DNA of 64,000 nt from Bacteroidales bacterium Bact_11 (GCA_001603505.1 LUZC01000012.1:10725-74724), one strand, 5' to 3'; numbered from the stretch's first letter, positions 505 to 28,823 are shown. Numbers and translations: made by a program. Notes: generated from the letters alone by a model not told the origin.

Positions 505-3264
505 ATGGCAGAAGGAACAATCAGAATCAACAAGATCCTCAAAGACTTCAACATCGGTCTGTCCACCCTGGCCGACTTCCTCAAGAAGAAAGGCGTCACG
601 GAAGAACTCACGCTTACCTCGAAGATTTCGGAAGACCTCTTCGCGCTGGTGGCCAAGGAGTTCGGAAAGGAACAGCTCATCAAGGAACAGTCGCGCAAGG
701 TAGCCATCAAAGTTAAGGAAATCACTGAGATGGACAGCAACCGTGTGGCGGAGGAAGAGGAACCGGTCAAGGAAATCCTCATCAAGACCCATGTGCTCAC
801 AGACCAGAAGAAGGTGGAAACTCCCGCACCGGAACCGGCCCCTGAGCCCGTGAAGAAAGCCCCGGTCAAAACACCTGCAACACCGAAAGCGGAGCCCGAA
901 AAACCGGAGGAAGAAAAAGCAGATGTTCCTGAAACGCCCAAGACCGAACTCAAGGTGGTCGGTCACATCGACTTATCGCCCAAGAAGAAAGCCGAACCCG
1001 AGCCCGCGCCGGAAAAGCCCGAGCCCGCACTCGAGCCTGAGGTGAAAGAGGAGAAAAAGCCCGAGAAGAAGGAGGAGCGTCCCGTCATCGAGCACATCGA
1101 GACCAAAGTGGAGAAACTTGCCGGGCCGAAGACCGTCGGCACCATCGACCTCTCGAAATTCGAGAAGAAACCCGCCACGGCCGATCACGGCAAGAAAGAC
1201 AAGAACAAGCGCGAGCGCATCCACAAGGGAACCGCCAAGGTGGACATCAGCAACCCGAAAAACAGCATCGCCAAGACCAACGGAAAGGACAATAAAGACA
1301 ATGTCCGCGGCAAAGCCGCCAAGAAGGGCGAACGCTTCAAGGCCGTCCGTCCGGAATTCGACAGCGACGAGATCCAGAAGCAGATCAAGGAGACCTACGC
1401 CCGCATGACCGAAGGCCACGGCAAGACCAAGACCTCGAAGCACCGCCGCGAGAAACGCGAAGAGATCTCCCTGAAGATGCAGGAAGAGCAGGAACGCCAG
1501 GAACTCACCAGCAACGTGCTCAAAGTCACGGAATTCGTGACCGTCAACGAGCTGGCCATCCTGATGAACAACACGCCCGTCACCAAGGTCATCGAAGCAT
1601 GCATGAACCTCGGCCTGATGGTGTCGATCAACCAGCGTCTCGACGCGGAGGCCATGGTGCTCGTGGCCGAAGAGTTCGGCTACAAGATCGAATTCGTGAC
1701 GGCCGAGATCCAGGGCGCCATCGCCCAGGAGGAAGACCGCGAAGAGGATCTCCAGCCGCGTCCGCCGATCGTCACCGTGATGGGTCACGTGGACCACGGC
1801 AAGACCTCGTTGCTCGACTACATCCGCAAGACCAACGTCATCGCCGGCGAGGCGGGCGGCATCACGCAGCACATCGGCGCCTATCATGTGGAACTCCCCG
1901 ACGGACGCGCCATCACCTTCCTCGACACCCCGGGTCACGAAGCGTTCACCGCCATGCGTGCCCGCGGCGCCAAGGTCACCGACCTGGCCATCATCATCAT
2001 CGCGGCCGACGACGCCGTGATGCCGCAGACGGTCGAGGCCATCAGCCACGCACAGGCTGCAGGCGTCCCGATGATCTTTGCCATCAACAAGATCGACAAG
2101 CCGGGCGCCAATCCCGACAAGATCAAGGAACAGCTGGCGAACATGAACATCCTGGTGGAAGACTGGGGCGGCAAGTACCAGTGCCAGGAAATCGCCGCCA
2201 AGAAAGGCATCAACGTCGACCAGCTGCTGGAAAAAGTCCTGCTGGAAGCCGACATGCTGGAACTCAAGGCGAACCCGAACAAACTCGCAGTGGGCAACAT
2301 CATCGAGTCGTCGCTCGACAAGGGCCGCGGCTACCTGGCCACCGTGCTTGTGCAGAGCGGTACGCTCCACGTGGGCGACCCGATCGTGGCCGGCTGCTAT
2401 GCAGGCCGCGTTAAGGCCATGTTCAACGAACGCGGCCAGCGCCTCAAGGAAGCCGGTCCTTCCACGCCGGTCTCCGTGCTCGGCCTGAGCGGCGCGCCGA
2501 CCGCCGGCGACACCCTCAACGCCATGGAGGACGAGAAGGAAGCCCGCGACGTGGCCAACAAGCGCGAGCAGCTCATCCGCATCCAGGGCATAAAGACCCA
2601 GACGCACATCACCCTCGAAGAGATCGGCCGCCGCATCGCGCTCGGCAACTTCCAGGAGCTCAACATCATCGTCAAGGCCGACGTGGACGGTTCCATCGAG
2701 GCCCTGTCCGACTCCCTCATCAAGCTCTCGACCGAGGAGATTCATGTCAACGTGATCCACAAGGCCGTGGGCGCCATCTCCGAATCGGATGTCCTGCTGG
2801 CCGTGGCGTCGAACGCCATCATCATCGGCTTCCAGGTGCGCCCGATGCCGAATGCCCGAAAGCTCGCCGAGAAAGAGCAGATTGAAATCCGCCTCTACTC
2901 GGTCATCTACGACGCCATCAATGAAGTCAAGAGCGGTATCGAGGGTATGCTCGCACCGGAGGAAAAAGAGGAAGTCACCGCCAACGCCGAGGTCCTCGAG
3001 ACCTTCAAGATTTCGAAGGTGGGTACGATCGCCGGATGTATGGTCCGCGACGGCAAGCTTACCCGCAATGCGAAGGTCCGCGTGATCCGCGACGGCATCG
3101 TGGTGTACACAGGCTCGCTGGGCTCGCTCAAGCGCCTGAAGGACGATGTCAAGGAAGTCGCCGCCGGATTCGACTGCGGTCTGAGCGTCGACGGATTCAA
3201 CGACATCAAGATCGGCGACATGATCGAAGCCTACCAGATCGTGGAAGTCAAACGCAAACTGTAA
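505..3264 (+). CDS. infB: Translation initiation factor IF-2
   Basis: 919-aa ORF with GTPase motifs [13 protein letters not shown] and NKID. Long Lys/Glu/Pro-rich N-terminal region. Follows nusA. Confidence 0.97.
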
Positions 3265-3267
3265 CTC

Positions 3268-4602
3268 ATGGATCCCCTGCAGGCCATTTCCCCCGTCGAC
3301 GGCCGCTATGCGTCGAAGACGTCCGAACTTTCGGCTTTCTTCTCCGAATACGCCCTGATGCGCTACCGCGTGCTGGTGGAAGTGGAGTATTTCATCGCTC
3401 TGTGCGAACTCCCGCTGCCGCAGCTCCGCGATATCGACCCCGACGTCTTCCCCGCCCTGCGCGCCCTCTACGGCGACTTCCAGGTGGAAGACGCCGCCCG
3501 GATCAAAGAGATCGAGCGCCGCACCAACCATGATGTCAAGGCCGTGGAGTATTTCCTGAAGGAACGCTTCGCGCAGCTCGGCATCGAACGCTTCGGCGAA
3601 TTCATCCACTTCGGGCTCACCTCGCAGGATATCAACAACACGGCTACGCCGCTCTCGCTCAAGGAAGCGATCGCAGAGGTGTATCTTCCCGCCCTGCGCG
3701 AACTGTTGGGCATGCTCTCCGAACGCGCCGCCCTGTGGGCCGACGTGCCGATGCTCGCCCATACCCACGGGCAGCCCGCTTCCCCCACCCGCCTAGGCAA
3801 GGAGCTGGAGGTGTTCGTGGTCCGGCTCAAGGAGCAGATCCGCCAGCTGGAAGCCCGCCCCTATCCCGGCAAATTCGGCGGTGCAACGGGCAACCTCAAC
3901 GCCCACGCGGTAGCCTATCCCGACATCGACTGGAACGGCTTTGCAGAAAGTTTCGTTGCCTCGCTGGGCCTGAAACGATCCTGGCCCACCACCCAGATCG
4001 ACCACTACGACAACCTGTCGGCTATCTTCGACGCGCTGCGCCGCATCAATACGGTGCTTGTGGACCTGAGCCGCGACTGTTGGATGTATATCTCCATGGA
4101 GTACTTCGGCCAGACGGTCGTGGACGGCGAAGTGGGTTCTTCCACGATGCCCCACAAGATCAATCCCATCGACTTCGAGAACGCAGAAGGCAACCTTACC
4201 TACGCGAATGCCATCTACAACTACCTCTCGGAGAAGTTGCCGGTTTCGCGCCTGCAGCGCGACCTCACCGACTCCACGGTATCGCGCAACATCGGTGTGC
4301 CCATCGCCCATTCGCTGATAGCCATCCGGTCGCTGGAAAAAGGCATCGGCAAGCTCATCCTCAACGAAGAGAAAGTGGCGGGCGACCTCGAGGCCAACTG
4401 GGCCGTCGTCGCCGAAGGCATCCAGACCATCCTGCGCCGGGAGGGATTCCCCAAGCCGTACGAGGCGCTCAAGGCGCTCACGCGCACCGGACACCATATT
4501 ACCAAGGAAGCCATCTGGCATTTCATCGAAGACCTCGACGTGTCCGAATCGGTCAAGGCCGAGCTCCACGCCATCACGCCGAACACTTACACAGGCATTT
4601 AG
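3268..4602 (+). CDS. purB: Adenylosuccinate lyase
   Basis: 444 aa. Fumarate-lyase family signature SSTMPHKINP. N-terminus ISPVDGRYASKT is typical of PurB. Confidence 0.95.
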   Translation: MDPLQAISPVDGRYASKTSELSAFFSEYALMRYRVLVEVEYFIALCELPLPQLRDIDPDVFPALRALYGDFQVEDAARIKEIERRTNHDVKAVEYFLKERFAQLGIERFGEFIHFGLTSQDINNTATPLSLKEAIAEVYLPALRELLGMLSERAALWADVPMLAHTHGQPASPTRLGKELEVFVVRLKEQIRQLEARPYPGKFGGATGNLNAHAVAYPDIDWNGFAESFVASLGLKRSWPTTQIDHYDNLSAIFDALRRINTVLVDLSRDCWMYISMEYFGQTVVDGEVGSSTMPHKINPIDFENAEGNLTYANAIYNYLSEKLPVSRLQRDLTDSTVSRNIGVPIAHSLIAIRSLEKGIGKLILNEEKVAGDLEANWAVVAEGIQTILRREGFPKPYEALKALTRTGHHITKEAIWHFIEDLDVSESVKAELHAITPNTYTGI

Positions 4603-5270: not shown

Positions 5271-5354
5271 AAAAGGAAAAGGCGACTCGCTGCAGTGCGG
5301 GTCGCCTTATCCTTTAACCTAAAACTTAACCTATGAAAAAACTATTCGTTCGAT
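5271..5354 (-). ncRNA. Candidate ~84-nt sigma-54-dependent small RNA (copy A)
   Basis: Predicted start is about 12 nt downstream of the -12 GC. Ends at the hairpin 5281-5306 plus a U-rich tail (minus strand TTTTCCTTTT). No ORF. The core is duplicated at 10565-10644. Confidence 0.35.
5281..5306. terminator. Bidirectional intrinsic terminator hairpin between convergent genes (OM protein + / PPIase -)
   Basis: GGCGACTCGC-TGCAGT-GCGGGTCGCC. The stem is 10 bp (one G-U) on the + strand and 6+3 bp with a C-A mismatch on the - strand. An A-rich tract lies on one side and a T-rich tract on the other. Confidence 0.7.
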
Positions 5355-5365
5355 TTATAGGTTAA

Positions 5366-5380
5366 GCAAAGCGCGTGCCA
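5366..5380 (-). promoter_or_regulatory. Sigma-54 (-24/-12) type promoter motif TGGCACG-CGCT-TTGC
   Basis: The minus strand reads TTTGGCACGCGCTTTGCTT: TGGCAC at 5380-5375, a 5-nt spacer, TTGC at 5369-5366. It matches the TGGCACG-N4-TTGCW consensus. rpoN is encoded in the window. Confidence 0.5.
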
Positions 5381-5387
5381 AAGTTTT

Positions 5388-6074
5388 TTAATTCGCCGGA
5401 GTAATCGAAATAATCTGCACCTTGTTGACCGGGCGGTCGCGCGGATCGGTTTTTTCAGCCGCGATCTTGTCGATTACCGAGAGACCGTCCACCACTTCTC
5501 CGAAGATGGTGTATTCGCCGTCGAGGTGGGCGCAGTTGTCGGGATCGTGGACGATGTAGAACTGGGAGCCGGACGATTCCTTGGCCGGATTCACCATATC
5601 GCCGCGACGGGCGGCAGCCAGCGCGCCTTTCTTGTGGGTCAGGCCGGGCACGATCTCCGCCGGAATGGTATAACCCGGTCCTCCGGTGCCAAACTGGGCT
5701 ATCTTGGTAGAATCCTTGGTGAACGGATCGCCGCCCTGGATCATGAAACCTTTGATGATCCGGTGGAACAGCAGGCCGTTGTAGAAGCCGGACTTCGCCA
5801 GTTTGACGAAATTGTCGCGGTGAAGCGGCGTTTCCGAATAGAGTTTGACGGTCATGGTTCCGTCGGTGGTCTTGATGGTCAACTTCGGCTCTTCGCCGAG
5901 AGCGGCCCACTTGTCGGCGGGCACAGCAGGTGCTTCGTTCATAGTTGTTAGTTCTTGAGTCTCTTCGATGGCCTCGTCGGGATTGGCATCAAGTCCCGGT
6001 TTCGAGTCGTTACCCTTGCCGCAACCGGCCATAAGGACAGCCGCCGCAAGGAAGTAAATGCATATCCGTTTCAT
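5388..6074 (-). CDS. Peptidyl-prolyl cis-trans isomerase, cyclophilin type, lipoprotein
   Basis: Lipobox ...VLMAGC. Cyclophilin motifs FHRIIKGFMIQGGDP and GTGGPGYTIPAE. Confidence 0.9.
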   Translation of the reverse strand: MKRICIYFLAAAVLMAGCGKGNDSKPGLDANPDEAIEETQELTTMNEAPAVPADKWAALGEEPKLTIKTTDGTMTVKLYSETPLHRDNFVKLAKSGFYNGLLFHRIIKGFMIQGGDPFTKDSTKIAQFGTGGPGYTIPAEIVPGLTHKKGALAAARRGDMVNPAKESSGSQFYIVHDPDNCAHLDGEYTIFGEVVDGLSVIDKIAAEKTDPRDRPVNKVQIISITPAN

Positions 6075-6108
6075 CCGTCAATAAACGTTTTAAGCTGTTT
6101 TTACTGCC

Positions 6109-6116
6109 CAAATTTA
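6109..6116 (-). promoter_or_regulatory. Bacteroidota -7 promoter box TAaaTTTG (PPIase gene)
   Basis: The minus strand reads TAAATTTG, 35 nt upstream of the ATG at 6074. Confidence 0.5.
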
Positions 6117-6128
6117 GCGATAATTTCG

Positions 6129-6136
6129 TATTTTTG
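6129..6136 (+). promoter_or_regulatory. Bacteroidota -7 promoter box TAttTTTG (flippase-like gene)
   Basis: TATTTTTG lies back-to-back with the minus-strand box at 6109-6116, 19 nt before the proposed GTG start. Confidence 0.5.
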
Positions 6137-6155
6137 TAAAGTTAAACTGCATTTC

Positions 6156-7631
6156 GTGGCGAACCCCATCAAACAACTTGCCGGCGAAACTGCCATCTAC
6201 GGACTGAGTACCATCCTGGCCCGCGTCATCAACTTTGCGCTCGTCCCGCTGTACACGCGCGTGCTGACGCAGACGCAATACGGTGTGTTCTCGGAGTTCA
6301 TGGCCTACATCGCCATGCTGCAGGTGGTGCTTACGCTCGGCCTGGAGACGGGATGCTTCCGCTATGCCAGCAAAGAAGGTGCCGATCCGAAACGGGTGTT
6401 CTCCAATGCATTCGTCACGGTATTCGGCGTCTGTGCCCTTTTCTTGGCCTGCCTGATAGCCTTTTCCGGCGAAATAGCCACCGGCTTCGGCTACCCCGGC
6501 TTCGACAACCTGATCATTTACTGTGGGCTTATCCTGCTGATCGACTGTACGACGGCCATTCTGTTCGCCAAACTGCGGCACGAACACAAGGCCTTGAAAT
6601 TCGCCGTCATCAAGACGATCAAGATCCTCACGGAAGTTGGTGTGAACCTGCTGCTCTACCTGGTGATGGCCGCCCGGTTCGCCACCAACCCCGATCATTG
6701 GCTCACCCGGTTCGTCAGCGCGTCGCCCGACTTCACCTACCCCATCTTCGCCATTCTGATCAGCTGCCTCGTGTGCCTGGTGCTGATTGCTCCTGATCTT
6801 CTGAAACTCACCTTCCGGCTCGACGGGAAACTCATCCGCCGGCTCCTCGCCTATTCGCTGCCATTGATGATCGCAGGCCTGCCGGGCATCATGAACGACG
6901 TGCTCGACCGCGTGCTGATGCGTTTCATCAACGCTGATCCCGTGAACTGGCGCGCCGACCTGGGCGTGTACCAGGCGGCCGTCAAGCTGGCCGTCATCAT
7001 GCAATTGTTCGTGCAGATGTTCCGCTATGCCGCTGAACCGTTCTTTTTTCAACGGGAGCGCGACAAGGACAGCAAAAAAATCTACGCCGACGTGTTGAAC
7101 TACTTCACAGCCTTCTGCATGTTCGGTTTCGTGGTGCTGATGCTCTTCATGGACGAGATCGGCCTGCTGCTGGGCAAGGACTTCCGGGTGGGACTCTCCA
7201 TCACGCCCATCATGCTCATGGCCTACGTGATTACGGGCGTGCTGTTCAATGTGAATATCTGGTACAAGCTTTCGGAAAAAACGGGCTATGCCGTCTGGAT
7301 TACCCTGGCGGGACTGGTGGTGACCATCGTGGTCAACCTCCTTTTCATGCCGAAATATTCCTATCACGCGGCCGCGTGGGGGCATATCGCCAGCTACCTG
7401 ACGATGCTGGTCCTTACAGCCTGGCTGGGACGCAGGCACTATCCGATTCCATACAACTGGGGCGTGGTGCTCCTGCTGACAGCGGCAGGCCTCGGAACAT
7501 GGGGTGTCAGCCGCCTGTTGCCCGAAATGGACCTGTGGATCAAAATCATCGTGCATTTGCTGCTGGTACTGGTCTATCTTGGGCTTGCATTTATTATATT
7601 TGTATTCCATAAGAAGAAATCCGCCGCATGA
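6156..7631 (+). CDS. MOP-superfamily oligosaccharide/polysaccharide flippase (Wzx/MurJ-like), about 12 TM
   Basis: Polytopic membrane protein; the N-terminus [36 protein letters not shown] is typical of polysaccharide-biosynthesis flippases. The ORF-track start at 5955 overlaps the PPIase gene and both promoter boxes. The in-frame GTG at 6156 is proposed instead; the start remains uncertain. Confidence 0.72.
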
Positions 7632-8062
7632 AAGTCAAGATCGTGAACCATTCCCCGTTCGATCTCCCGGCTTATGCCACGCCACAATCAGCCGGCATGG
7701 ATCTTCGGGCCGACCTCAAGGAGCCCGTCGTCCTCGCTCCGCTGGAGCGCACCCTGGTCCCCACCGGGCTGCATATCGAGTTGCCCGCAGGCTTTGAGGC
7801 CCAGGTACGCCCCCGCAGCGGACTTGCCGCCAAGTACGGCATCTCGATTGTCAACGCGCCCGGTACCATCGACGCCGACTATCGCGGTGAAATCAAAGTG
7901 ATCCTCGTCAATCTTTCTAACGAGCCCTTTGCGATCGAGCCCGGTGAACGCATCGCCCAGATGGTGGTAGCACGTCACGAACAAGTGGAATGGGAGCCCG
8001 TAGAAACACTGGAAGAAAGTGAGCGCGGCAGCGGAGGATTCGGATCAACCGGTAAACAATAG
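7628..8062 (+). CDS. dut: dUTP diphosphatase
   Basis: 144 aa. Motifs [18 protein letters not shown] and [14 protein letters not shown] overlap with the upstream gene. Confidence 0.95.
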
Positions 8063-8071
8063 CAGTCAGCC

Positions 8072-9400
8072 ATGATATCAGTAGAGGAGCTATACGCACT
8101 GTATAAGAGGTGCTCGGGAATTACGACAGACAGCCGCAACATCAAAGACGGCATGATGTTCTTTGCCCTGAAAGGCGACAAGTTCGACGGAAACGACTTC
8201 GCACTGGACGCGCTCAAAGCGGGCGCCCGCTATGCAGTGGTCGACCGCTTCTTGCTGGAAGGCACTTCCTACCGGGGGCGCAAATGCATCGTGGTGGAGA
8301 ACTCGTTGGAAATGCTGCAGAAGATGGCCGCCTACCACCGCCGCCAGTTCGACATTCCCGTGATCGGCATCACCGGCACCAATGGGAAGACCACGACGAA
8401 GGAGCTCGTGGCTGCGGTGCTTGCGAAAAAATATGACCTGGTCGCCACGCAGGCCAATTTCAACAACCACATCGGTGTGCCACTCACCCTCTTTCGCATC
8501 GACGAGCGCACCGACCTGGCCGTCGTGGAGATGGGCGCCAGCGCTCCCGGCGAAATCGCCGATCTCACGAAGATCGTACAGCCCACCTGCGGCCTGATTA
8601 CCACCGTGGGCAAGGCACACCTGCAGGGATTCGGGTCGTTCGAGGGTGTCAAGAAAGCCAAAGGCGAACTCTACGACATCCTCCGCCAAAGGGGCGGCGT
8701 GGTGTTCTACAACGCCGACAACCCGAACCTGCGCGAAATGGTAGCGCACCGCCCCGGCCTGTGCACCCGGAAATACGGCGTGAAGGAACAGGGTGTCCAG
8801 ATTCTGCCCGCCACTGCCGAAGAACCCTTCCTGCGTCTGTCTTTCGAGCACGAGGGTAAACCCATCACCATCGCCACGCACCTGGTGGGCGACTACAATG
8901 CCGACAATGTGATGGCCGCCTTGTCCATCGCCGAGGCTTATGAAGTTCCGTTTTCCAAGGCCGTCGCTGCCATCGAGGCATACGTGCCTTCCAATAGCCG
9001 CAGCCAACTCGTCAAAACAGGACTCAACACCCTGATCATCGACGCCTACAACGCCAATCCCTCCAGCATGCGCGCTGCGCTCGACAATTTCGCAGGCACG
9101 GACTTCCCCAATAAGGTGCTGATGCTGGGCGATATGCTGGAACTGGGCCCCGATTCAGCCGAAGAGCACCGCGCCATCCTCCGCCATGCGCTGGAAACGG
9201 CGCCGATGACCTATGTGGTGGGATCGGAATTCGGCGGCATCGTCGCCTCTGTGGAGACCACACCGCTGCAGCAGGTCCAGGCGTTCCCCGACATCGACGC
9301 GCTCAAGGCCTACGTGCTGGAGCATCCCCTGCAGGACTGCACCATCCTGATCAAGGGTTCGAACGGCAACCACATGCAGCGAATCGTCGACGCCCTGTAA
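8072..9400 (+). CDS. murF: UDP-N-acetylmuramoyl-tripeptide--D-alanyl-D-alanine ligase
   Basis: Mur ligase P-loop [13 protein letters not shown] and DAYNANPSSM motif. 442 aa. Confidence 0.92.
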   Translation: MISVEELYALYKRCSGITTDSRNIKDGMMFFALKGDKFDGNDFALDALKAGARYAVVDRFLLEGTSYRGRKCIVVENSLEMLQKMAAYHRRQFDIPVIGITGTNGKTTTKELVAAVLAKKYDLVATQANFNNHIGVPLTLFRIDERTDLAVVEMGASAPGEIADLTKIVQPTCGLITTVGKAHLQGFGSFEGVKKAKGELYDILRQRGGVVFYNADNPNLREMVAHRPGLCTRKYGVKEQGVQILPATAEEPFLRLSFEHEGKPITIATHLVGDYNADNVMAALSIAEAYEVPFSKAVAAIEAYVPSNSRSQLVKTGLNTLIIDAYNANPSSMRAALDNFAGTDFPNKVLMLGDMLELGPDSAEEHRAILRHALETAPMTYVVGSEFGGIVASVETTPLQQVQAFPDIDALKAYVLEHPLQDCTILIKGSNGNHMQRIVDAL

Positions 9401-9428
9401 AAAAGATTTGTAATTCAAAATTTATCCG

Positions 9429-9436
9429 TATCTTTG
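9429..9436 (+). promoter_or_regulatory. -7 promoter box TAtcTTTG (rpsP-rimM)
   Basis: TATCTTTG lies 70 nt upstream of the rpsP ATG. Confidence 0.55.
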
Positions 9437-9506
9437 CAGGCCTTTCCTCGAGAAGGAAGGGAAGTTAGAATTATTGTACTGATTGTTAACTTAAAACCCA
9501 TTTAAA

Positions 9507-10064
9507 ATGGCTGTTAAAATCCGCCTTTCGCGTCACGGCAAGAAGAACTACGCGTATTTCCACATTGTCGTTGCTGACGCACGCGCACCGCGCGACGGCC
9601 GTCTGATCGAACAGATCGGCCTCTACAACCCGAATACCAACCCCGCTACCATCGTCCTCGACGGTGAGCGCGCCCTCGACTGGCTCAACAAAGGTGCCCA
9701 GCCGACCACTACGGCCCGCCGCATCCTGTCGTACGAAGGTGTTCTTCTCAAGAAGCACCTCCAGGGTGGTGTAGCCAAGGGCGCTTTCACGCAGGAAGAG
9801 GCTGACCGCCGTTTCGCTGCCTGGAAGGGTCAGAAAGATTCCAAGGTCGCTACGAAGAAGCAGACCATCGCCAACGCCGCCGTCGAAGCCGCCAAGGCTG
9901 CCGTCAAGGCTGAAGCCAAAGTCAACACCGAACGCGCCGAGGCTATCGCCAAGAAGAAGGCCGAGATCGCCGCTGCTGCCGAAGCAGCCGCCAAGGCCGC
10001 TGCAGAAGAAGCTGCCGCCGCTGCCGCGGAAGCAGAAGCTCCTGCCGAGAATCCGGAAGCCTAA
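9507..10064 (+). CDS. rpsP: 30S ribosomal protein S16 with a long Ala/Lys/Glu-rich C-terminal extension
   Basis: N-terminus [32 protein letters not shown] is canonical S16. About 100 extra low-complexity residues follow. Confidence 0.95.
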
Positions 10065-10069
10065 TCGGG

Positions 10070-10528
10070 ATGAAGGTGCTGAAATCCTGGGGCTCGGCCG
10101 GTGAGGTCGTTTTGGGCCTCGATGCCGAAGACACCCGGGATTTGAAGATCCAGGAGCCGGTATTCATCGATTTCGATGAACTGCCGGTTCCTTTTTTTAT
10201 GGAATCCATCCAGACCAAAGGTAACCGTTTCATCGTCAAGTTTGAGGATGTCGATACGCTCGAGGCGGCAGAGGAACTTGTTGGCCGCATGGTGCGTATG
10301 TCCGAAACGGAGGAAGAGGAGGACGAGGGCATCGTCGGCATGCAGGTCCGCGATGCAAAGAGCCGCCGAATCATCGGGACCGTCGTCGATTTCAGCGATT
10401 ATGGCGGAAACACGCTCATCACGGTGGAAACCGCCCGCGGGGAAGTGATGCTGCCCCTCCACGAAGACCTCATCGTCAGCATCCACAACGATGTAATCAC
10501 CCTCGACATTCCGGAGGGTTTACTCTAA
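10070..10528 (+). CDS. rimM: 16S rRNA processing protein RimM
   Basis: Directly follows rpsP, the conserved order. 152 aa with a RimM-like N-terminal barrel (GEVVLGLD...) and a C-terminal PRC-like segment (MLPLHEDLIVSI). Confidence 0.8.
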   Translation: MKVLKSWGSAGEVVLGLDAEDTRDLKIQEPVFIDFDELPVPFFMESIQTKGNRFIVKFEDVDTLEAAEELVGRMVRMSETEEEEDEGIVGMQVRDAKSRRIIGTVVDFSDYGGNTLITVETARGEVMLPLHEDLIVSIHNDVITLDIPEGLL

Positions 10529-10538
10529 GAAACGAGTT

Positions 10539-10553
10539 TGGCACACGCTTTGC
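10539..10553 (+). promoter_or_regulatory. Sigma-54 (-24/-12) type promoter motif TGGCACA-CGCT-TTGC
   Basis: TGGCAC at 10539-10544, a 5-nt spacer, TTGC at 10550-10553. Same motif as copy A with one substitution. Confidence 0.5.
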
Positions 10554-10564
10554 TTAACCTAGAT

Positions 10565-10644
10565 TCGAATAGTTTTTTCATAGGTTAAGTTTTAGGTTAA
10601 AGGATAAGGCGACCCGTTCTGAAACGAGTCGCCTTTTTCCTTTT
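10565..10644 (+). ncRNA. Candidate ~80-nt sigma-54-dependent small RNA (copy B)
   Basis: Predicted start is about 12 nt after the -12 GC. Tandem TAGGTTAA motif, terminator hairpin at 10608-10633, then TTTTTCCTTTT. No ORF. Confidence 0.35.
10608..10633. terminator. Bidirectional intrinsic terminator hairpin between rimM (+) and the phosphohexomutase gene (-)
   Basis: GGCGACCCGT-TCTGAA-ACGAGTCGCC flanked by T-rich and A-rich tracts. Relative to copy A, the loop-closing pair is changed from C-G to T-A (compensatory). Confidence 0.7.
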
Positions 10645-17537: not shown

Positions 17538-17792
17538 ATGGCAAATCACGCATCAGCAGACAAGCGTTTCCGCCAGAGTGAGAAACGCCGCGTACATAAC
17601 AAGTACTATGCACGCACAACCCGCAACGCCATCAAGGCGATCCGCAATACGACCGACAAGGCAGCAGCCGAGGCTTCCATGCCGAAGGTGTTCGCAATGA
17701 TCGACAAACTCGCAAAGATCAACGTCATCCACAAGAACAAGGCGGCCAACCTGAAGAGCGGAATCGCAGTTTATGTGAACAAGCTCGCATAA
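17538..17792 (+). CDS. rpsT: 30S ribosomal protein S20
   Basis: [24 protein letters not shown]... is canonical S20. The ORF-track start at 17433 reads through the tRNA. Confidence 0.93.
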
Positions 17793-17820
17793 ATTGCTTT
17801 TTTGACGGGAAAATCTGAAA

Positions 17821-17852
17821 AAACTTTCCAACCTTTGTTGGAAAGTTTTTTT
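17821..17852 (+). terminator. Rho-independent terminator after rpsT
   Basis: CTTTCCAAC-CTTT-GTTGGAAAG (17824-17845) flanked by an A-run and T7. Confidence 0.8.
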
Positions 17853-17865
17853 ATATCCCGTCACC

Positions 17866-21635: not shown

Positions 21636-23042
21636 ATGCTGAAGCAAACACAACAACTCAAGCAGACGCAGAGGCTCTCTCCGCTCCAGATCCAGACCAT
21701 CAAACTGATCGAGCTGCCGGCCCCTGAACTGGAGCAGCGCATCCAGAAGGAGCTGGAAGAGAATCCTGTGCTTGAGGAAGTCGTGGACGATTCGCCGGAA
21801 GGGGAAGAAAAGAAAAACATCTCGCTGAGCGAGTATGGCAGCAGCGACCCGACCCCGTCGTACAAGCTCTATGTCAACAACCAGGGCAAGGACCTCAAGC
21901 CGCAATACAACACCTTCTCCGTGCAGGAGAGTTTCCACCAGAGCCTCGAGGCCCAGCTCGGCTACTGCAAGCTCGATGAACGCCAACGGCAGATCGCCCT
22001 GTTCATCATCGGCATGATCGACGACGACGGCTACCTGCGGCGCGACCTCGAATCGCTCGCCGACGACATCTCGTTCCGGCTCGGCATCGAGACGACCGAG
22101 GAGGAAGTGGAACAGCTGCTGAAACTCATCCAGGAGTTCGACCCGGTGGGCGTGGGCGCACGCGACCTGCGCGAGTGCCTGCTTCTCCAGCTGGCCGCCA
22201 AGAAACAGACGCCTTCAGTCCAACTGGCCACACGGATCCTGCGCGACCATTTCACCGAATTCACCAAAAAGCACTACAGCAAGATCACCGCGCGGCTGAA
22301 CATCACGGAAGACCAGCTCAAGGAAGCCATCGCCGAGATCGTGCGGCTCAATCCCCGTCCCGGCGGACAGATCGACGATTCCTATACCGAGCAGGTACAG
22401 CAGGTAGTCCCCGACTTCCTGGTGGAACTCAAGGATGGAGAACCCGTCATGTCGATGCCCCGCTTCTCCGTGCCTGAACTGAAAGTCAACAAACGTTACG
22501 CCGACGTCCTGATGGAAGCGGCCAACAGCGCCACCCGGGAAAAGAAAGAGGCAGCCAGCTTCGTCAAGCAGAAACTCGACTCGGCCAAATGGTTCATCGA
22601 AGCCATCAAGCAGCGTCACAACACGTTGCAGAACACGATGAACGCCATCATCGACTACCAGCACGATTTCTTCATCGACGGCGACGAGACCAGGCTCAAA
22701 CCGATGGTCCTGCGCAACATCGCCGAAAAGACCGGTCTGGACATCTCCACCATCTCGCGTGTGGTCAACTGCAAATACGTGCAGACACACTTCGGTATCT
22801 ATCCGCTCAAATATTTCTTCTCGGAAGGACTCGTAGCACATGACGGCGAAGAGGTATCCACCCGTGAGATCAAGACCATCCTGACCAACAGCATCGCCGA
22901 GGAAGACAAGCGCAAGCCTTTGACCGACGAGGAACTTGTGGCCGTCCTCAGCGAAAAGGGATACAAAGTGGCGCGCCGTACCGTGGCCAAGTACCGCGAA
23001 CAGCTCAACATCCCCATTGCGCGGCTCCGGAAAGAACTCTAA
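21636..23042 (+). CDS. rpoN: RNA polymerase sigma-54 factor
   Basis: N-terminal Gln/Leu-rich region I (MLKQTQQLKQTQRLSPLQIQ). C-terminal RpoN box ARRTVAKYRE. Confidence 0.95.
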   Translation: MLKQTQQLKQTQRLSPLQIQTIKLIELPAPELEQRIQKELEENPVLEEVVDDSPEGEEKKNISLSEYGSSDPTPSYKLYVNNQGKDLKPQYNTFSVQESFHQSLEAQLGYCKLDERQRQIALFIIGMIDDDGYLRRDLESLADDISFRLGIETTEEEVEQLLKLIQEFDPVGVGARDLRECLLLQLAAKKQTPSVQLATRILRDHFTEFTKKHYSKITARLNITEDQLKEAIAEIVRLNPRPGGQIDDSYTEQVQQVVPDFLVELKDGEPVMSMPRFSVPELKVNKRYADVLMEAANSATREKKEAASFVKQKLDSAKWFIEAIKQRHNTLQNTMNAIIDYQHDFFIDGDETRLKPMVLRNIAEKTGLDISTISRVVNCKYVQTHFGIYPLKYFFSEGLVAHDGEEVSTREIKTILTNSIAEEDKRKPLTDEELVAVLSEKGYKVARRTVAKYREQLNIPIARLRKEL

Positions 23043-25950: not shown

Positions 25951-28005
25951 ATGAAAGACTCCCGCACCAACCCGCTGCTTGCCGCATCCACGCTGCCGTA
26001 TGGCGCACCGGCATTCGACACCTTCCGGACCGAAGACTACCTGCCCGCCTTCCGCGAAGCGATTGCCCGCGGACAGGCCGAAATCCGGCAAATCACCGAC
26101 AATCCGGAATCCCCTTCATTCACCAATACCATCGAGGCGCTGGAACGCGCCGGAGTCGCCCTCGACCACGTGTCGAACCTTTTCTTCAACCTGACGGAAG
26201 CCTGCACCAGCGACGAAATGGACCGCATCGCCGAGGAGGTATCCCCGATGCTCACGCAGTACAGCCTGTCAATCCTGCTCGATGAAAAGCTGTTTGCGCG
26301 CGTAAAGGCCGTGTGGGAGCGACGCGACAGCCTCGCGCTCGATACGGAAGCCGCCAAACTGCTGGAAGAGACCTGGAAATCCTTTGCCCGCCACGGGGCC
26401 AACCTTCCCCCGGAAAAGAAAGAGCGCTTCACAAAGGTATCGGAAGATTTGTCGCTGGCCACGCTCAAGTTCGGCCAGAACGTGCTAGCGGCCACCAACG
26501 CCTTTACCCTCGACCTGACCGACGAATCCGAGTTGGAAGGCCTTCCCGGCCATGTCCGCGAGATGGCAGCCACCGAAGCCCGCAGCCGCGGCCGCAAAGG
26601 ATGGACCTTCACCCTGAACCAGCCCAGCTACGGCCCTTTCCTCAAATACAGTGACCGTCGCGAACTGCGCGAAAAGATGTGGCGTGCCTACAACGGCCGT
26701 TGCGTCTGCGGCGCCAACGACAACACAGCCACCATCCGCCGGATCATCGCCTTGCGACAGGAAAAAGCCCGGCTGCTCAGCTACGCCTCGTTTGCCGACT
26801 ATGCCCTGGAAGAGCGCATGGCCCGCAACCCGGAGACCGTGAACGCCTTCCTCGACCGGCTGATGGCCCCTTCGCTGCCCGCCGCCCGGAGCGAGACGCA
26901 GGACATTGCCGACTATGCCCATAGCCACGGTTTCCTCGAGACCCTGATGCCCTGGGACTTCAGCTACTGGTCGGAGAAGTACCGGAAAGAACGCTACGAC
27001 CTCGACGACGAACTGCTGAAACCCTACTTCCGACTCGACGCCGTGCAGGCGGCGGTCTTCGACTTGGCAGGCCGGCTCTACGGCCTGCACTTCGAACCGC
27101 GCGGCGACCTGCCCGTGTATCATCCGGACGTCCGGGTCTTTGAAGTGACGGAAGAATCGGGGCGGATGATGGCCCTGCTCTACCTGGATTTTTTCCCGCG
27201 GGAAAGCAAGCGGGGCGGCGCGTGGATGACCTCTTTCCGGGAATCAGGAATCATCGACGGACGGGAAGAACGGCCCTTCGTCTCGATTGTGACCAATTTC
27301 ACAAAGCCCACTCCCTCAACGCCCTCCCTGCTCACATTCTCCGAAGTGACAACGCTGCTCCACGAATTCGGCCACGCCCTCCACGGCATACTGGCCGAAG
27401 GGCGCTACCCTTCGCTCACGGGCACCAACGTGGTGCGCGATTTCGTGGAACTGCCCTCCCAACTCATGGAGAACTGGGCCTGCGAGCCCGCCTTCCTGGA
27501 AACCTTCGCCCGCCATTGGCAGACCGGCGAAATCATTCCCAAAGCCTACATCGACCGGATCGTGGAGGCACGGAACTATCTGGCCGGCTATGCGCAGGTG
27601 CGCCAGTTGCAGTTCGGCCGCATCGACATGGCCTGGCACACCCGGCCTGAGGGCGTGCCCGACGATGTCGTGGCCTTCGAGCACGAGGTTCTGGCGCCGG
27701 CCGCCGTCCTGCCGCAACTGCCCGGAGCGGCCGTGTCGCCTTCCTTCAACCACATCTTCTCGGGCGGCTATGCCGCAGGCTACTACTCTTACAAATGGGC
27801 GGAAGTCCTCGAAGCCGATGCGTTCGCTTTCTTCAAGGAAAAGGGTATCTTCAGCCGGGAAGCCGCCGGACACTTTCGCAAAGAAATCCTCTCGCGCGGC
27901 GGTAGCGTAGATGCGGGCGTGCTGTACCGCAACTTCCGGGGCCGCGATCCGGAGCCCGACGCCCTTCTCGAAAAACTGGGACTGAAAGCGTCGAAGCAGT
28001 CGTAA
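25951..28005 (+). CDS. dcp: M3-family peptidyl-dipeptidase / oligopeptidase
   Basis: Zincin motif TLLHEFGHALHG. About 685 aa with M3 family architecture. Confidence 0.88.
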   Translation: MKDSRTNPLLAASTLPYGAPAFDTFRTEDYLPAFREAIARGQAEIRQITDNPESPSFTNTIEALERAGVALDHVSNLFFNLTEACTSDEMDRIAEEVSPMLTQYSLSILLDEKLFARVKAVWERRDSLALDTEAAKLLEETWKSFARHGANLPPEKKERFTKVSEDLSLATLKFGQNVLAATNAFTLDLTDESELEGLPGHVREMAATEARSRGRKGWTFTLNQPSYGPFLKYSDRRELREKMWRAYNGRCVCGANDNTATIRRIIALRQEKARLLSYASFADYALEERMARNPETVNAFLDRLMAPSLPAARSETQDIADYAHSHGFLETLMPWDFSYWSEKYRKERYDLDDELLKPYFRLDAVQAAVFDLAGRLYGLHFEPRGDLPVYHPDVRVFEVTEESGRMMALLYLDFFPRESKRGGAWMTSFRESGIIDGREERPFVSIVTNFTKPTPSTPSLLTFSEVTTLLHEFGHALHGILAEGRYPSLTGTNVVRDFVELPSQLMENWACEPAFLETFARHWQTGEIIPKAYIDRIVEARNYLAGYAQVRQLQFGRIDMAWHTRPEGVPDDVVAFEHEVLAPAAVLPQLPGAAVSPSFNHIFSGGYAAGYYSYKWAEVLEADAFAFFKEKGIFSREAAGHFRKEILSRGGSVDAGVLYRNFRGRDPEPDALLEKLGLKASKQS

Positions 28006-28011
28006 TAATTT

Positions 28012-28019
28012 GTATATTT
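28012..28019 (+). promoter_or_regulatory. -7 promoter box TAtaTTTG (M48 peptidase gene)
   Basis: TATATTTG lies 21 nt upstream of the ATG at 28041. Confidence 0.4.
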
Positions 28020-28040
28020 GAAGGAAATTTAACCTTTGCT

Positions 28041-28823
28041 ATGAAAAGACTGATACCCGCCCTCGTCTGCGCAATGCTGCTGCTGCCGGGTTGCGGCGTG
28101 CTCCTCAACGGACTTTCCAACATGGATGCCGCCGGCATGGCCACGGCCGCCAGCACGGCCATGACCGCCCTTTCCATCACCGACGAACAGATCGCCCAGC
28201 TCAGCGCCGAGTCGGTCGCCTACATGGACTCGGTCAACAAGGTCGACAAAGGCAGCTACGACGCCCGCCTCCGCCGGCTCATGTCGAACATCAAGAGCAT
28301 CGATGGCGTGCCCATCAACCTGAAAGTCTACCGCACCAACGAAGTCAATGCCTTCGCCTGCGGCGACGGCTCCATCCGCGTGTATTCCGGCCTGATGGAC
28401 GTGATGGACGACGCGGAACTGATGGCCGTGATCGGACACGAGATCGGCCACGTGGTGAACAAGGACACCAAGACCGCCATGAAGAAAACCTATATGGCTT
28501 ACGCGGCAAGGCAGGCGCTCGGCTCAACCGGCACCCTGATCGGGAACCTTTCCACCAGCGTCCTGGGCGACATCGCGCAGTCGTATCTCAATGCACAATA
28601 TTCCCAGAAGCAGGAATTCGCCGCCGACGAACACGGATTTGCCTTTTCCATCAACCAGGGATACAGCCCCTACAGCATGTACAATTCCCTGGTCAAGCTC
28701 ATGAAGCTCAACAGCAATTCCAGTTCGAAGGCGTCCGGCGTCCAGCAAGCCTTCTCCTCACACCCTGCCACGGAAGAGCGTGCAGCCCGCATGAAAGCGG
28801 CTGCCGACGCCTACAGCAAATAG
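28041..28823 (+). CDS. M48-family metallopeptidase, lipoprotein
   Basis: Lipobox LLLPGC and HEIGHV zincin motif. 260 aa. Confidence 0.85.
   Translation: MKRLIPALVCAMLLLPGCGVLLNGLSNMDAAGMATAASTAMTALSITDEQIAQLSAESVAYMDSVNKVDKGSYDARLRRLMSNIKSIDGVPINLKVYRTNEVNAFACGDGSIRVYSGLMDVMDDAELMAVIGHEIGHVVNKDTKTAMKKTYMAYAARQALGSTGTLIGNLSTSVLGDIAQSYLNAQYSQKQEFAADEHGFAFSINQGYSPYSMYNSLVKLMKLNSNSSSKASGVQQAFSSHPATEERAARMKAAADAYSK

Follow-up and report, generated by a model that had tools for sequence, protein, structure and literature searches.

A FopS/BTnc231-like family of predicted small RNA genes with sigma-54-type promoters in uncultured gut and rumen Bacteroidales

Two copies of a short intergenic element were analysed computationally in a 64,000-bp stretch of DNA from Bacteroidales bacterium Bact_11 (GCA_001603505.1, LUZC01000012.1:10725-74724), which as a whole is called the window below. 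An earlier note, made from the sequence alone, had proposed the element as a sigma-54-dependent small RNA (sRNA) gene, and the comparison across genomes described here supports that proposal. Each copy appears to place an RNA body resembling FopS and BTnc231 of Bacteroides under a sigma-54-type promoter, a new combination which the comparative data support as widespread in uncultured gut and rumen Bacteroidales. Taken as a whole, it is likely that the copies are stand-alone, sigma-54-driven genes for trans-acting sRNAs of about 80 nt that repress at start codons.

Copy B (10537-10644, + strand, 108 bp) reads TTTGGCACACGCTTTGCTT and begins nine bases past the rimM stop codon (10526-10528). Its sigma-54-type promoter TTTGGCACACGCTTTGCT (10537-10554, +) contains TGGCAC at 10539-10544 (-24 element) and TTGC at 10550-10553 (-12 element), an exact match to the consensus. 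The start of transcription was predicted at 10565-10567, 12-14 nt past the C of the -12 GC, which would give a transcript of about 80 nt (10565-10644, +). The 5' part of this RNA is a predicted single-stranded seed region, CGAAUAGUUUUUUCAUAGGUUAAGUUUUAGGUUAA (10566-10600, +), containing UUUUUCAU and a tandem UAGGUUAA. It runs into an intrinsic terminator (10599-10644, +) with a core hairpin at 10608-10633, an extended stem from about 10599 and a U-tract at 10634-10644. The arms of the hairpin, GGCGACCCGT and ACGAGTCGCC, pair with a single C-A mismatch and are followed by TTTTTCCTTTT. The positions of the promoter, the hairpin and the rimM stop codon given earlier for this copy were all verified in the sequence.

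Copy A (5271-5383, - strand) is inverted relative to copy B and reads TGGCACGCGCTTTGC. Its promoter TTTGGCACGCGCTTTGC (5366-5382, -), with TGGCAC at 5380-5375 and TTGC at 5369-5366, matches TGGCACG-N4-TTGCW in full. The transcript is predicted to start near 5354 and to span about 84 nt (5271-5354, -), with a leader 5 nt longer than that of copy B; sequence and fold place its seed at 5349-5314, the hairpin at 5306-5281 and the U-tract at 5280-5271 (all -). The second copy, the identical shared core (CGAATAGTTTTTTCATAGGTTAAGTTTTAGGTTAAAGGATAAGGCGACCCG) and the 5-nt indel had been reported correctly in the earlier note. The indel is an insertion in copy A between promoter and core, a CGAA-type duplication that gives tCGAACGAAtag at 5341-5354 (-) against tCGAAtag in the comparison. 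A covariance model run over the 64-kb window detected exactly two copies, with 89.3 bits (10565-10641) and 87.5 bits (5273-5349). A weak match at 17789-17855 was merely the rpsT terminator.

Both copies display the anatomy of a stand-alone, intrinsically terminated sRNA gene, namely an own promoter, no open reading frame (ORF), a GC-rich hairpin with a U-tract and no co-oriented gene downstream. The genes downstream of both copies are convergent, so neither promoter can serve a downstream ORF. As claimed earlier, no ORF fits the element itself, and 68 of the 104 family members lack any ATG on the sense strand. SusC/SusD genes were considered beside copy A, and the large ORF pair there was found to be infB and purB. 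We hold with high confidence that the copies are real sRNA genes.

Two exact TGGCAC-N5-TTGC sites are present in the window, where 0.14 would be expected (the earlier estimate was about 0.1), and none of 100 shuffled sequences attained two. With one mismatch allowed, no enrichment was found in the window (5 sites, 5.2 expected), so only the two exact sites matter. In both of them the GG and GC dinucleotides stand 10 nt apart. The only convincing sigma-54 sites in the window are those of the two sRNA genes, and in about 0.9 Mb of fetched loci a single perfect consensus was found without an attached sRNA gene of this family. No chaperone genes usable for calibrating the sigma-54 consensus of the clade were present within the window and the fetched loci. 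The gene for the RNA polymerase sigma-54 factor, rpoN, is located at 21636-23042 (+), as had been noted, and was recognised by TIGR02395 with 430.8 bits (cut-off 277).

Conservation of the promoter was assessed by a comparative scan with the pattern TTTTTCATAGGTTAA-N2-8-AGGTTAA, which holds the RNA core only and no promoter bases. The scan covered one genome per species (GTDB representatives) and gave at least 119 loci, with 130 unique copies among the matches listed. Almost all of these matches were in Bacteroidales metagenome-assembled genomes (MAGs) from gut and rumen, and at least 74 genome assemblies of gut and rumen Bacteroidales carry the sRNA family. Promoters were scored by their match to TGGCAC-N5-TTGC (10 positions) in the 75 nt upstream, with a threshold of at least 8/10, for which the chance expectation is 0.026 per upstream window. 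The earlier note had named orthologous copies that keep the terminator and lose the GG/GC dinucleotides as evidence that would speak against sigma-54. The opposite was observed: 106 of the 130 unique copies among the matches listed reached the threshold and kept TGGCAC-N5-TTG[C/T], and the upstream contexts of these copies fall into 57 unrelated clusters. The -24 hexamer was TGGCAC in 101 of the 106 promoters. The -12 tetramer was TTGC in 72, TTGT in 29 and TTGG or TTGA in 5, the GC being present in both window copies. The distance from the C of the -12 GC to the U-run was 20-22 nt in 96/106, and a position-specific profile gave tTtTGGCACG..gTTTGCa as the promoter consensus of the family. Six diverged copies that were missed by the exact pattern were recovered by the covariance model; GG-N10-G[C/T] was in place in all six, which read TGGCAC, TGGTAC or TGGCAT followed by TTGC or TTGT, even with a drifted seed.

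Such conservation might also stem from a protein encoded on the opposite strand, where the sequence reads TTAACCTATGAAAAAACTATTCG, a good Bacteroidota-style start; the element would then be the leader and start of a small protein (ATGAAAAAACTATTC..., MKKLF...). However, this ORF is erratic, from 5 to more than 28 codons, and its peptides are not conserved. Spacing variants of 1 nt shift the frame while the promoter bases stay fixed, so that the promoter occurs in all three frames relative to any opposite-strand ORF. Together with the erratic ORF length, this excludes coding constraint, and the probability left to a small protein is close to nil.

A different promoter class was also weighed. 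The TTTG of 'gcTTTGc' coincides with the core of the -7 box TAnnTTTG recognised by the housekeeping sigma factor sigma-ABfr (PMC7366714), and homologous RNAs in Bacteroides and in termite-gut MAGs use that factor. It could thus be proposed that sigma-ABfr drives transcription through a degenerate -7 box and that the likeness to sigma-54 promoters is incidental. Against this, the TA of TAnnTTTG is absent at the required position from the window promoters and from the family consensus, which has CG..gTTTG there, and the invariant GGCAC has no role for sigma-ABfr. The spacing to the second TTTG, upstream, is 12 nt instead of about 26 nt, and with a start set by the -7 box the poorly conserved spacer would become part of the RNA. 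Copies with a genuine sigma-ABfr promoter are clearly distinct in appearance. In the negative control, BTnc231 copies from gut metagenomes (L126-L245), the canonical TAnnTTTG was found in 118/118 and a sigma-54 score of at least 8 in 0/118, which rules out BTnc231 itself as sigma-54-driven. Core matches outside Bacteroidales had neither promoter type and looked chance-like. Recognition by sigma-ABfr is therefore considered very improbable, and it is very likely, judging from these conserved bases, that the promoter is a sigma-54 promoter.

The start site was predicted from the boundary of conservation. After the -12 box about 11 positions are unconserved, the information content being near zero from -10 to +1, and conserved sequence returns at C(-12)+13/14 as CGaAUAGUUUUUUCAU (CGaAUAGU), where a sigma-54 start is expected. 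This predicts transcription from 12-14 nt past the -12 GC and agrees with the start near 10565 suggested before. The predicted RNAs have a median length of 79 nt (range 65-92; 104 copies). For the two window copies, folding leaves the 5' half unpaired and forms a terminator hairpin (-23.1 and -27.5 kcal/mol, z = -3.1 and -3.6), and the seed region of copy B is unpaired in both the minimum-energy and the centroid fold. The seed is invariant in 17 related copies, the flanking genes of which are only about 79% identical. A strong hairpin with a U-run ends 97 of the 104 copies (median -20.9 kcal/mol), and the terminator sequences are unrelated between subfamilies. Copy B closes the terminator loop with a U-A pair, copy A with C-G. 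This single compensatory change, which had been offered as a sign of selection on RNA structure, is anecdotal alone; the covariation analysis that had been recommended bears it out, with double compensatory changes at 7 of 9 predicted terminator pairs in the window's own subfamily (the 17 related copies).

According to approximate ORF-based counts, the stop codon of a same-strand ORF precedes about 80 of 93 copies at a median distance of 14.5 nt with no intervening terminator, and a convergent ORF faces 63/93. An sRNA gene set in the 3' end of another transcription unit, with no terminator between them, must provide the terminator for both. This arrangement, and the report that one FopS member is derived from a 3'-UTR (PMC11697453), could mean that the element simply serves the upstream gene as its 3'-UTR and terminator. 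The RNA would then arise by read-through and processing, and GG-N10-GC would be, for example, a roadblock formed by the sigma-54 holoenzyme or a site for another protein. Such a module fails to predict a non-palindromic 10-position consensus at a fixed 20-22 nt across 57 contexts, or the restart of conservation at the sigma-54 start point, and we judge it improbable. The arrangement also fits known sRNAs that are embedded in 3'-UTRs and have their own promoter. MicL, for its part, is embedded at the 3' end of another gene and has its own promoter. Read-through may nevertheless matter for an 'anti-seed' CTTAACCTA that lies between the -12 box and the start site of copy B (10553-10561, +) and directly past the -12 TTGC of copy A (5366-5358, -), and which is complementary to UAGGUUAAG in the seed of the RNA. 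It is present in 29/104 family promoters and specific to some subfamilies. The anti-seed falls outside the predicted sigma-54 transcript and would be included in read-through RNA from rimM or from the peptidyl-prolyl isomerase (PPIase) gene, where a predicted hairpin could mask the seed; such a function is speculative.

The relationship to known RNAs was examined with Rfam. At gathering thresholds, the window and 17 diverse loci gave tRNAs only, and the sRNA is thus not a described family. In E-value mode, a kinship unnoticed in the earlier note appeared below threshold: BTnc231 (RF04180) matched with 26.7 bits (E = 0.0015; gathering threshold 80.4; about 90 model positions deleted) and FopS (RF04319) with 26.6 bits (E = 0.051; gathering threshold 56), no subfamily attaining the threshold. 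The blocks aligned in these matches were UUUUUCAU, AGGUUAA, GAU and the terminator. No match to GibS was obtained in the Rfam search of the window region.

FopS, which has been reported in Bacteroidaceae, consists of a single-stranded 5' seed and a Rho-independent terminator and is transcribed from sigma-ABfr promoters (PMC11697453). Experiments have shown that its pairing with susC and glycoside-hydrolase mRNAs, around their start codon, blocks translation, and it is bound by RbpB, a protein with an RNA recognition motif (RRM) (PMC11697453). The family described here resembles FopS in its single-stranded 5' R1 seed (UUUUUCAU-type) with the terminator directly after it, its length of about 70-80 nt, its multicopy, paralogous nature and the common blocks GUUUUUCAU ... 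AGGUUAA ... GAU. It differs in its sigma-54-type promoter, its tandem UAGGUUAA and its 1 to at least 4 copies, whereas FopS has sigma-ABfr promoters, 12-15 copies and a reported distribution limited to Bacteroidaceae. BTnc231 of B. thetaiotaomicron, validated by Northern blot and bound by RbpB, likewise has a 5' end ACGUUUUUUUCAUAG... followed by UUAAGGUUA; it differs by its 154-nt model and by a canonical TAtcTTTG -7 box in 118/118 metagenomic copies. The GUC-GUGA-GAC hairpin top of BTnc231 recurs in 14 of the 104 sigma-54-type copies, which suggests common descent. Considering the common seed blocks, the architecture and this hairpin top, the family probably shares ancestry with FopS and BTnc231.

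As a separate observation on this hairpin, the top (A)GUC-GUGA-GA(C/U)U is conserved and the lower stem covaries in BTnc231 (L126-L245) and in one sigma-54-type subfamily (L015, L023, L025, L027, L033, L042 and others). Its GNRA-like loop may provide a contact with protein or RNA.

GibS of Bacteroides (PMC7366714) has the R1 seed in common with FopS, acts by pairing with its targets where translation is initiated and is transcribed from a non-canonical promoter. Unlike the window family, it carries a second seed (R2), and its promoter 'PM2' is near-palindromic with -10/-30 elements for an unknown factor instead of -24/-12 elements. 'PM2' was rejected as a sigma-54 promoter, since its published description (-10/-30, near-palindromic), on which this comparison was made, does not fit.

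The seed points to a mode of action. UUUUUCAU is the reverse complement of AUGAAAAA, and the likely action is thus translational repression at start codons. In the mechanism we propose, sigma-54 RNA polymerase, whose rpoN gene lies 11 kb away, would bind the -24 TGGCAC and -12 TTGC immediately past the stop codon of the upstream gene, which is rimM for copy B and the peptidyl-prolyl isomerase gene for copy A. A signal-responsive enhancer-binding ATPase would open the promoter complex, and transcription would proceed from 12-14 nt past the -12 GC to the intrinsic terminator. The UUUUUUCAU and AGGUUAA blocks of the unstructured 5' region of about 36 nt would then pair with start-codon regions of the type ...UUAACCU...AUGAAAAAA..., most likely in mRNAs for exported or lipoproteins, glycan transporters or glycoside hydrolases. 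The pairing would block the initiation of translation, as has been shown experimentally for FopS of Bacteroides. By analogy with FopS, we lean slightly towards the sRNA being a start-codon-pairing repressor.

The best candidate target encodes a glycoside hydrolase family 3 (GH3) lipoprotein and is convergent with the sRNA gene in the three related genomes L083, L110 and L017. In L083, the GH3 gene (878 aa, 675-3308, +) faces the sRNA gene at 3327-3401 (-), and about 30 nt of its start region show complementarity to the seed. The predicted duplex with the sRNA of the same genome had an energy of -19.4 kcal/mol, against -8.5 +/- 2.5 for 300 shuffles, none of which was as good. The pairing was seen in this one genome, the sister loci ending before the 5' end of the GH3 gene. 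This modelled duplex makes the GH3 gene a possible cognate target that neighbours the gene of its regulator. Within the window, the best candidate was an M48-peptidase lipoprotein gene (28041-28823), the start region of which (28001-28060, +) reads ...AAUUUAACCUUUGCUAUGAAAAG...; its partial complementarity to both seed blocks was statistically indistinguishable from chance. A 13-mer search for the seed complement gave mostly nothing convincing, one 'hit' being a second sRNA copy read antisense. An earlier duplex target scan was discarded, as it was dominated by GC-rich spurious ORF starts.

Alternatively, the sRNA could still be driven by sigma-54 and act as a protein sponge or partner, its tandem UAGGUUAA titrating an RRM-type protein (an RbpB homologue) in the manner of CrcZ or RsmZ. 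The duplication of the motif in tandem and the lack of target enrichment, reported below, fit this role, and RbpB, an antagonist of FopS, binds FopS and BTnc231 in the 5' portion, where they share this block (PMC11697453; bioRxiv 10.1101/2023.12.22.572801). On the other hand, UUUUUCAU is an exact anti-start-codon and occupies the very 5' end, the place of validated base-pairing seeds in other sRNAs, and an extended complementarity of about 30 nt to one start region exists. No RRM protein genes were detected by signature in the window or the fetched loci, which is uninformative for the rest of the genome. The sponge role and base pairing are not mutually exclusive, and the former as the main explanation is regarded as unlikely beside the repressor proposed above.

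Several observations weigh against a sigma-54-driven repressor and were set against the evidence given so far. The invariance of the seed across the sample was partly forced by the search pattern. About 27% of the promoters (29/106) have T instead of the canonical C at -12, and the promoter-to-seed offset of copy A is 26 nt, which is atypical and the single such outlier among the 106. The closest characterised relatives, FopS and BTnc231, are under sigma-ABfr promoters (PMC11697453; 118 BTnc231 loci), and in termite-gut 'Prevotellaceae' MAGs 7/8 copies of this core have TAnnTTTG. With these three groups under sigma-ABfr, sigma-54 is not intrinsic to this RNA. When the seed was compared with 2,291 candidate initiation regions from the window and the loci (about 1 Mb), no enrichment over shuffled seeds was found. 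An enhancer-binding-protein gene (GAFTGA signature) was absent from the window and all fetched loci, and k-mer enrichment revealed no shared upstream activator site within 220 nt. The only motifs it returned, which were rejected, belong to the upstream gene of one syntenic subfamily. The activator may be encoded elsewhere in the genome, or may not need a site close to the promoter.

Unless an ATPase has been activated by a signal, sigma-54 promoters stay silent. The sRNA genes thereby point to a testable signalling pathway, in which the activator would reveal the signal, and we infer that their expression depends on sigma-54 and such an activator. Qrr1-5 of Vibrio are sibling sRNAs that depend on sigma-54 and LuxO and on Hfq, and their activator and upstream sites are known. 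The family described here resembles them (and also GlmY/GlmZ and CrcZ) in being short and multicopy, with a putative sigma-54 promoter of its own for each copy, a shared seed and individual terminators. It differs by the lack of any sequence relationship, by the phylum and by its activator sites, which are known for Qrr and were not found here. Qrr RNAs are also mentioned in PMC11697453. For the window sRNAs, an RRM-type protein is a likely partner rather than Hfq.

A precedent within the phylum is Rfp36 of Flavobacterium psychrophilum, a putative regulatory RNA downstream of a sigma-54-type (SM4) promoter (PMC9723704); it is an uncharacterised table entry, likened here by promoter class and not by sequence. 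In the literature searched, where most subscription journals are thinly covered, we found no sRNA described as dependent on sigma-54 for Bacteroides or Bacteroidales.

Sigma-54 has been reported to control chaperones and proteases in Bacteroidota (PMC12316311, PMC9723704), and this regulon suggests, rather than shows, a stress input to the sRNA genes. Tentatively, sigma-54 might in many Bacteroidales also drive 'anti-start-codon' sRNAs as the repressor arm of a stress response. If this were true, the activated sRNAs would pair with AUGAAAAAA-type initiation regions of exported, lipo- and glycan-uptake proteins and halt their synthesis. In enterobacteria, the sRNAs RybB, MicA and MicL, which depend on the stress sigma factor SigmaE, shut off the synthesis of envelope proteins. 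The Bacteroidales circuit would be a functional analogue built from different parts, and in Bacteroidaceae control of this RNA lineage (FopS, BTnc231) would have passed to the housekeeping sigma factor. The comparison with SigmaE is an analogy only, both the stress link and the envelope targets of the window sRNAs being hypothetical.

RNA regulation in Bacteroidota is barely mapped. FopS, GibS and BTnc231 are known only from Bacteroides, the signals that control them are largely obscure, and the factor behind the GibS promoter has been described as 'elusive'. With the present data, MAGs labelled Rikenellaceae, Alistipes or Muribaculaceae and a large number of uncultured Bacteroidales from rumen and gut join the known carriers of this RNA lineage. 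Its promoters there would also link it to an unusual, specific input for transcription. The sRNA genes account for nearly every perfect sigma-54 consensus in the available sequence and may rank with the main outputs of sigma-54 in these bacteria. The exchange of promoter class (sigma-54 versus sigma-ABfr) on one conserved RNA body would be a clean case of regulatory rewiring. The family offers a handle on two questions, namely which signals control Bacteroidales sRNAs of this class and what role sigma-54 has in these organisms.

The two copies also mark the ends of a genomic inversion. The 5.3-kb block between them (5271-10644) contains the genes for the PPIase and a 498-aa ORF, murF, rpsP (9507-10064) and rimM (10070-10528, +), the last two being confirmed. 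A look-up of the exact RimM protein gave no record. The block is flipped relative to its flanks in six sister species (L032, L107, L029, L021, L019 and L043) and oriented as in the window in three (L080, L088 and L058/L069). The breakpoints lie inside the sRNA genes, so that the promoters stay with the block and the terminators with the flank. Recombination between the inverted copies probably explains their 51-nt identity within the genome. As evidence of selection that identity is weak, the copies being recombined inverted repeats; selection itself is shown by the cross-species data. The flipped block, together with the multicopy nature and varied contexts of the element, could also suggest a repeat (MITE-like, i.e. 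resembling a miniature inverted-repeat transposable element, or a recombination site) whose inverted copies flip the block. The 3' halves (terminators), however, have unrelated sequences in different subfamilies and the 5' halves are invariant, the reverse of what a transposable unit would show. No terminal repeats or target duplications are present, and single-copy genomes are common. The inversion is better seen as a by-product of two inverted homologous genes, and we give a repeat element scarcely any weight.

MAGs labelled Rikenellaceae, 'Alistipes', Coprenecus or Muribaculaceae carry the sigma-54-type copies, as do unclassified Bacteroidales from rumen and gut. Up to four such copies occurred per assembly among the matches listed. 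Tandem or nearby diverged paralogues were observed at L084 (3343-3420 and 3527-3598, -) and in L045, L049, L031, L068 and L100. They have altered seeds (e.g. GGUUAUUUCAUAGG; no U-run in L100) and the -24 variants TGGTAC or TGGCAT, which hints at sub-functionalised siblings. 'Candidatus Egerieisoma' MAGs (L031, L081 and L097) carry typical Bacteroidales-type copies, yet the genus is placed in Clostridiaceae by the NCBI taxonomy, probably because names or taxonomy are mismatched in the records. The same core is also carried by six viral or proviral contigs of IMG/VR (L001-L006). L003 contains an identical 27-mer without a correctly spaced sigma-54 box, and L001, L002, L004 and L005 contain a separate AT-rich variant with its own terminator. 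A phage-borne copy has likewise been noted for FopS (PMC11697453).

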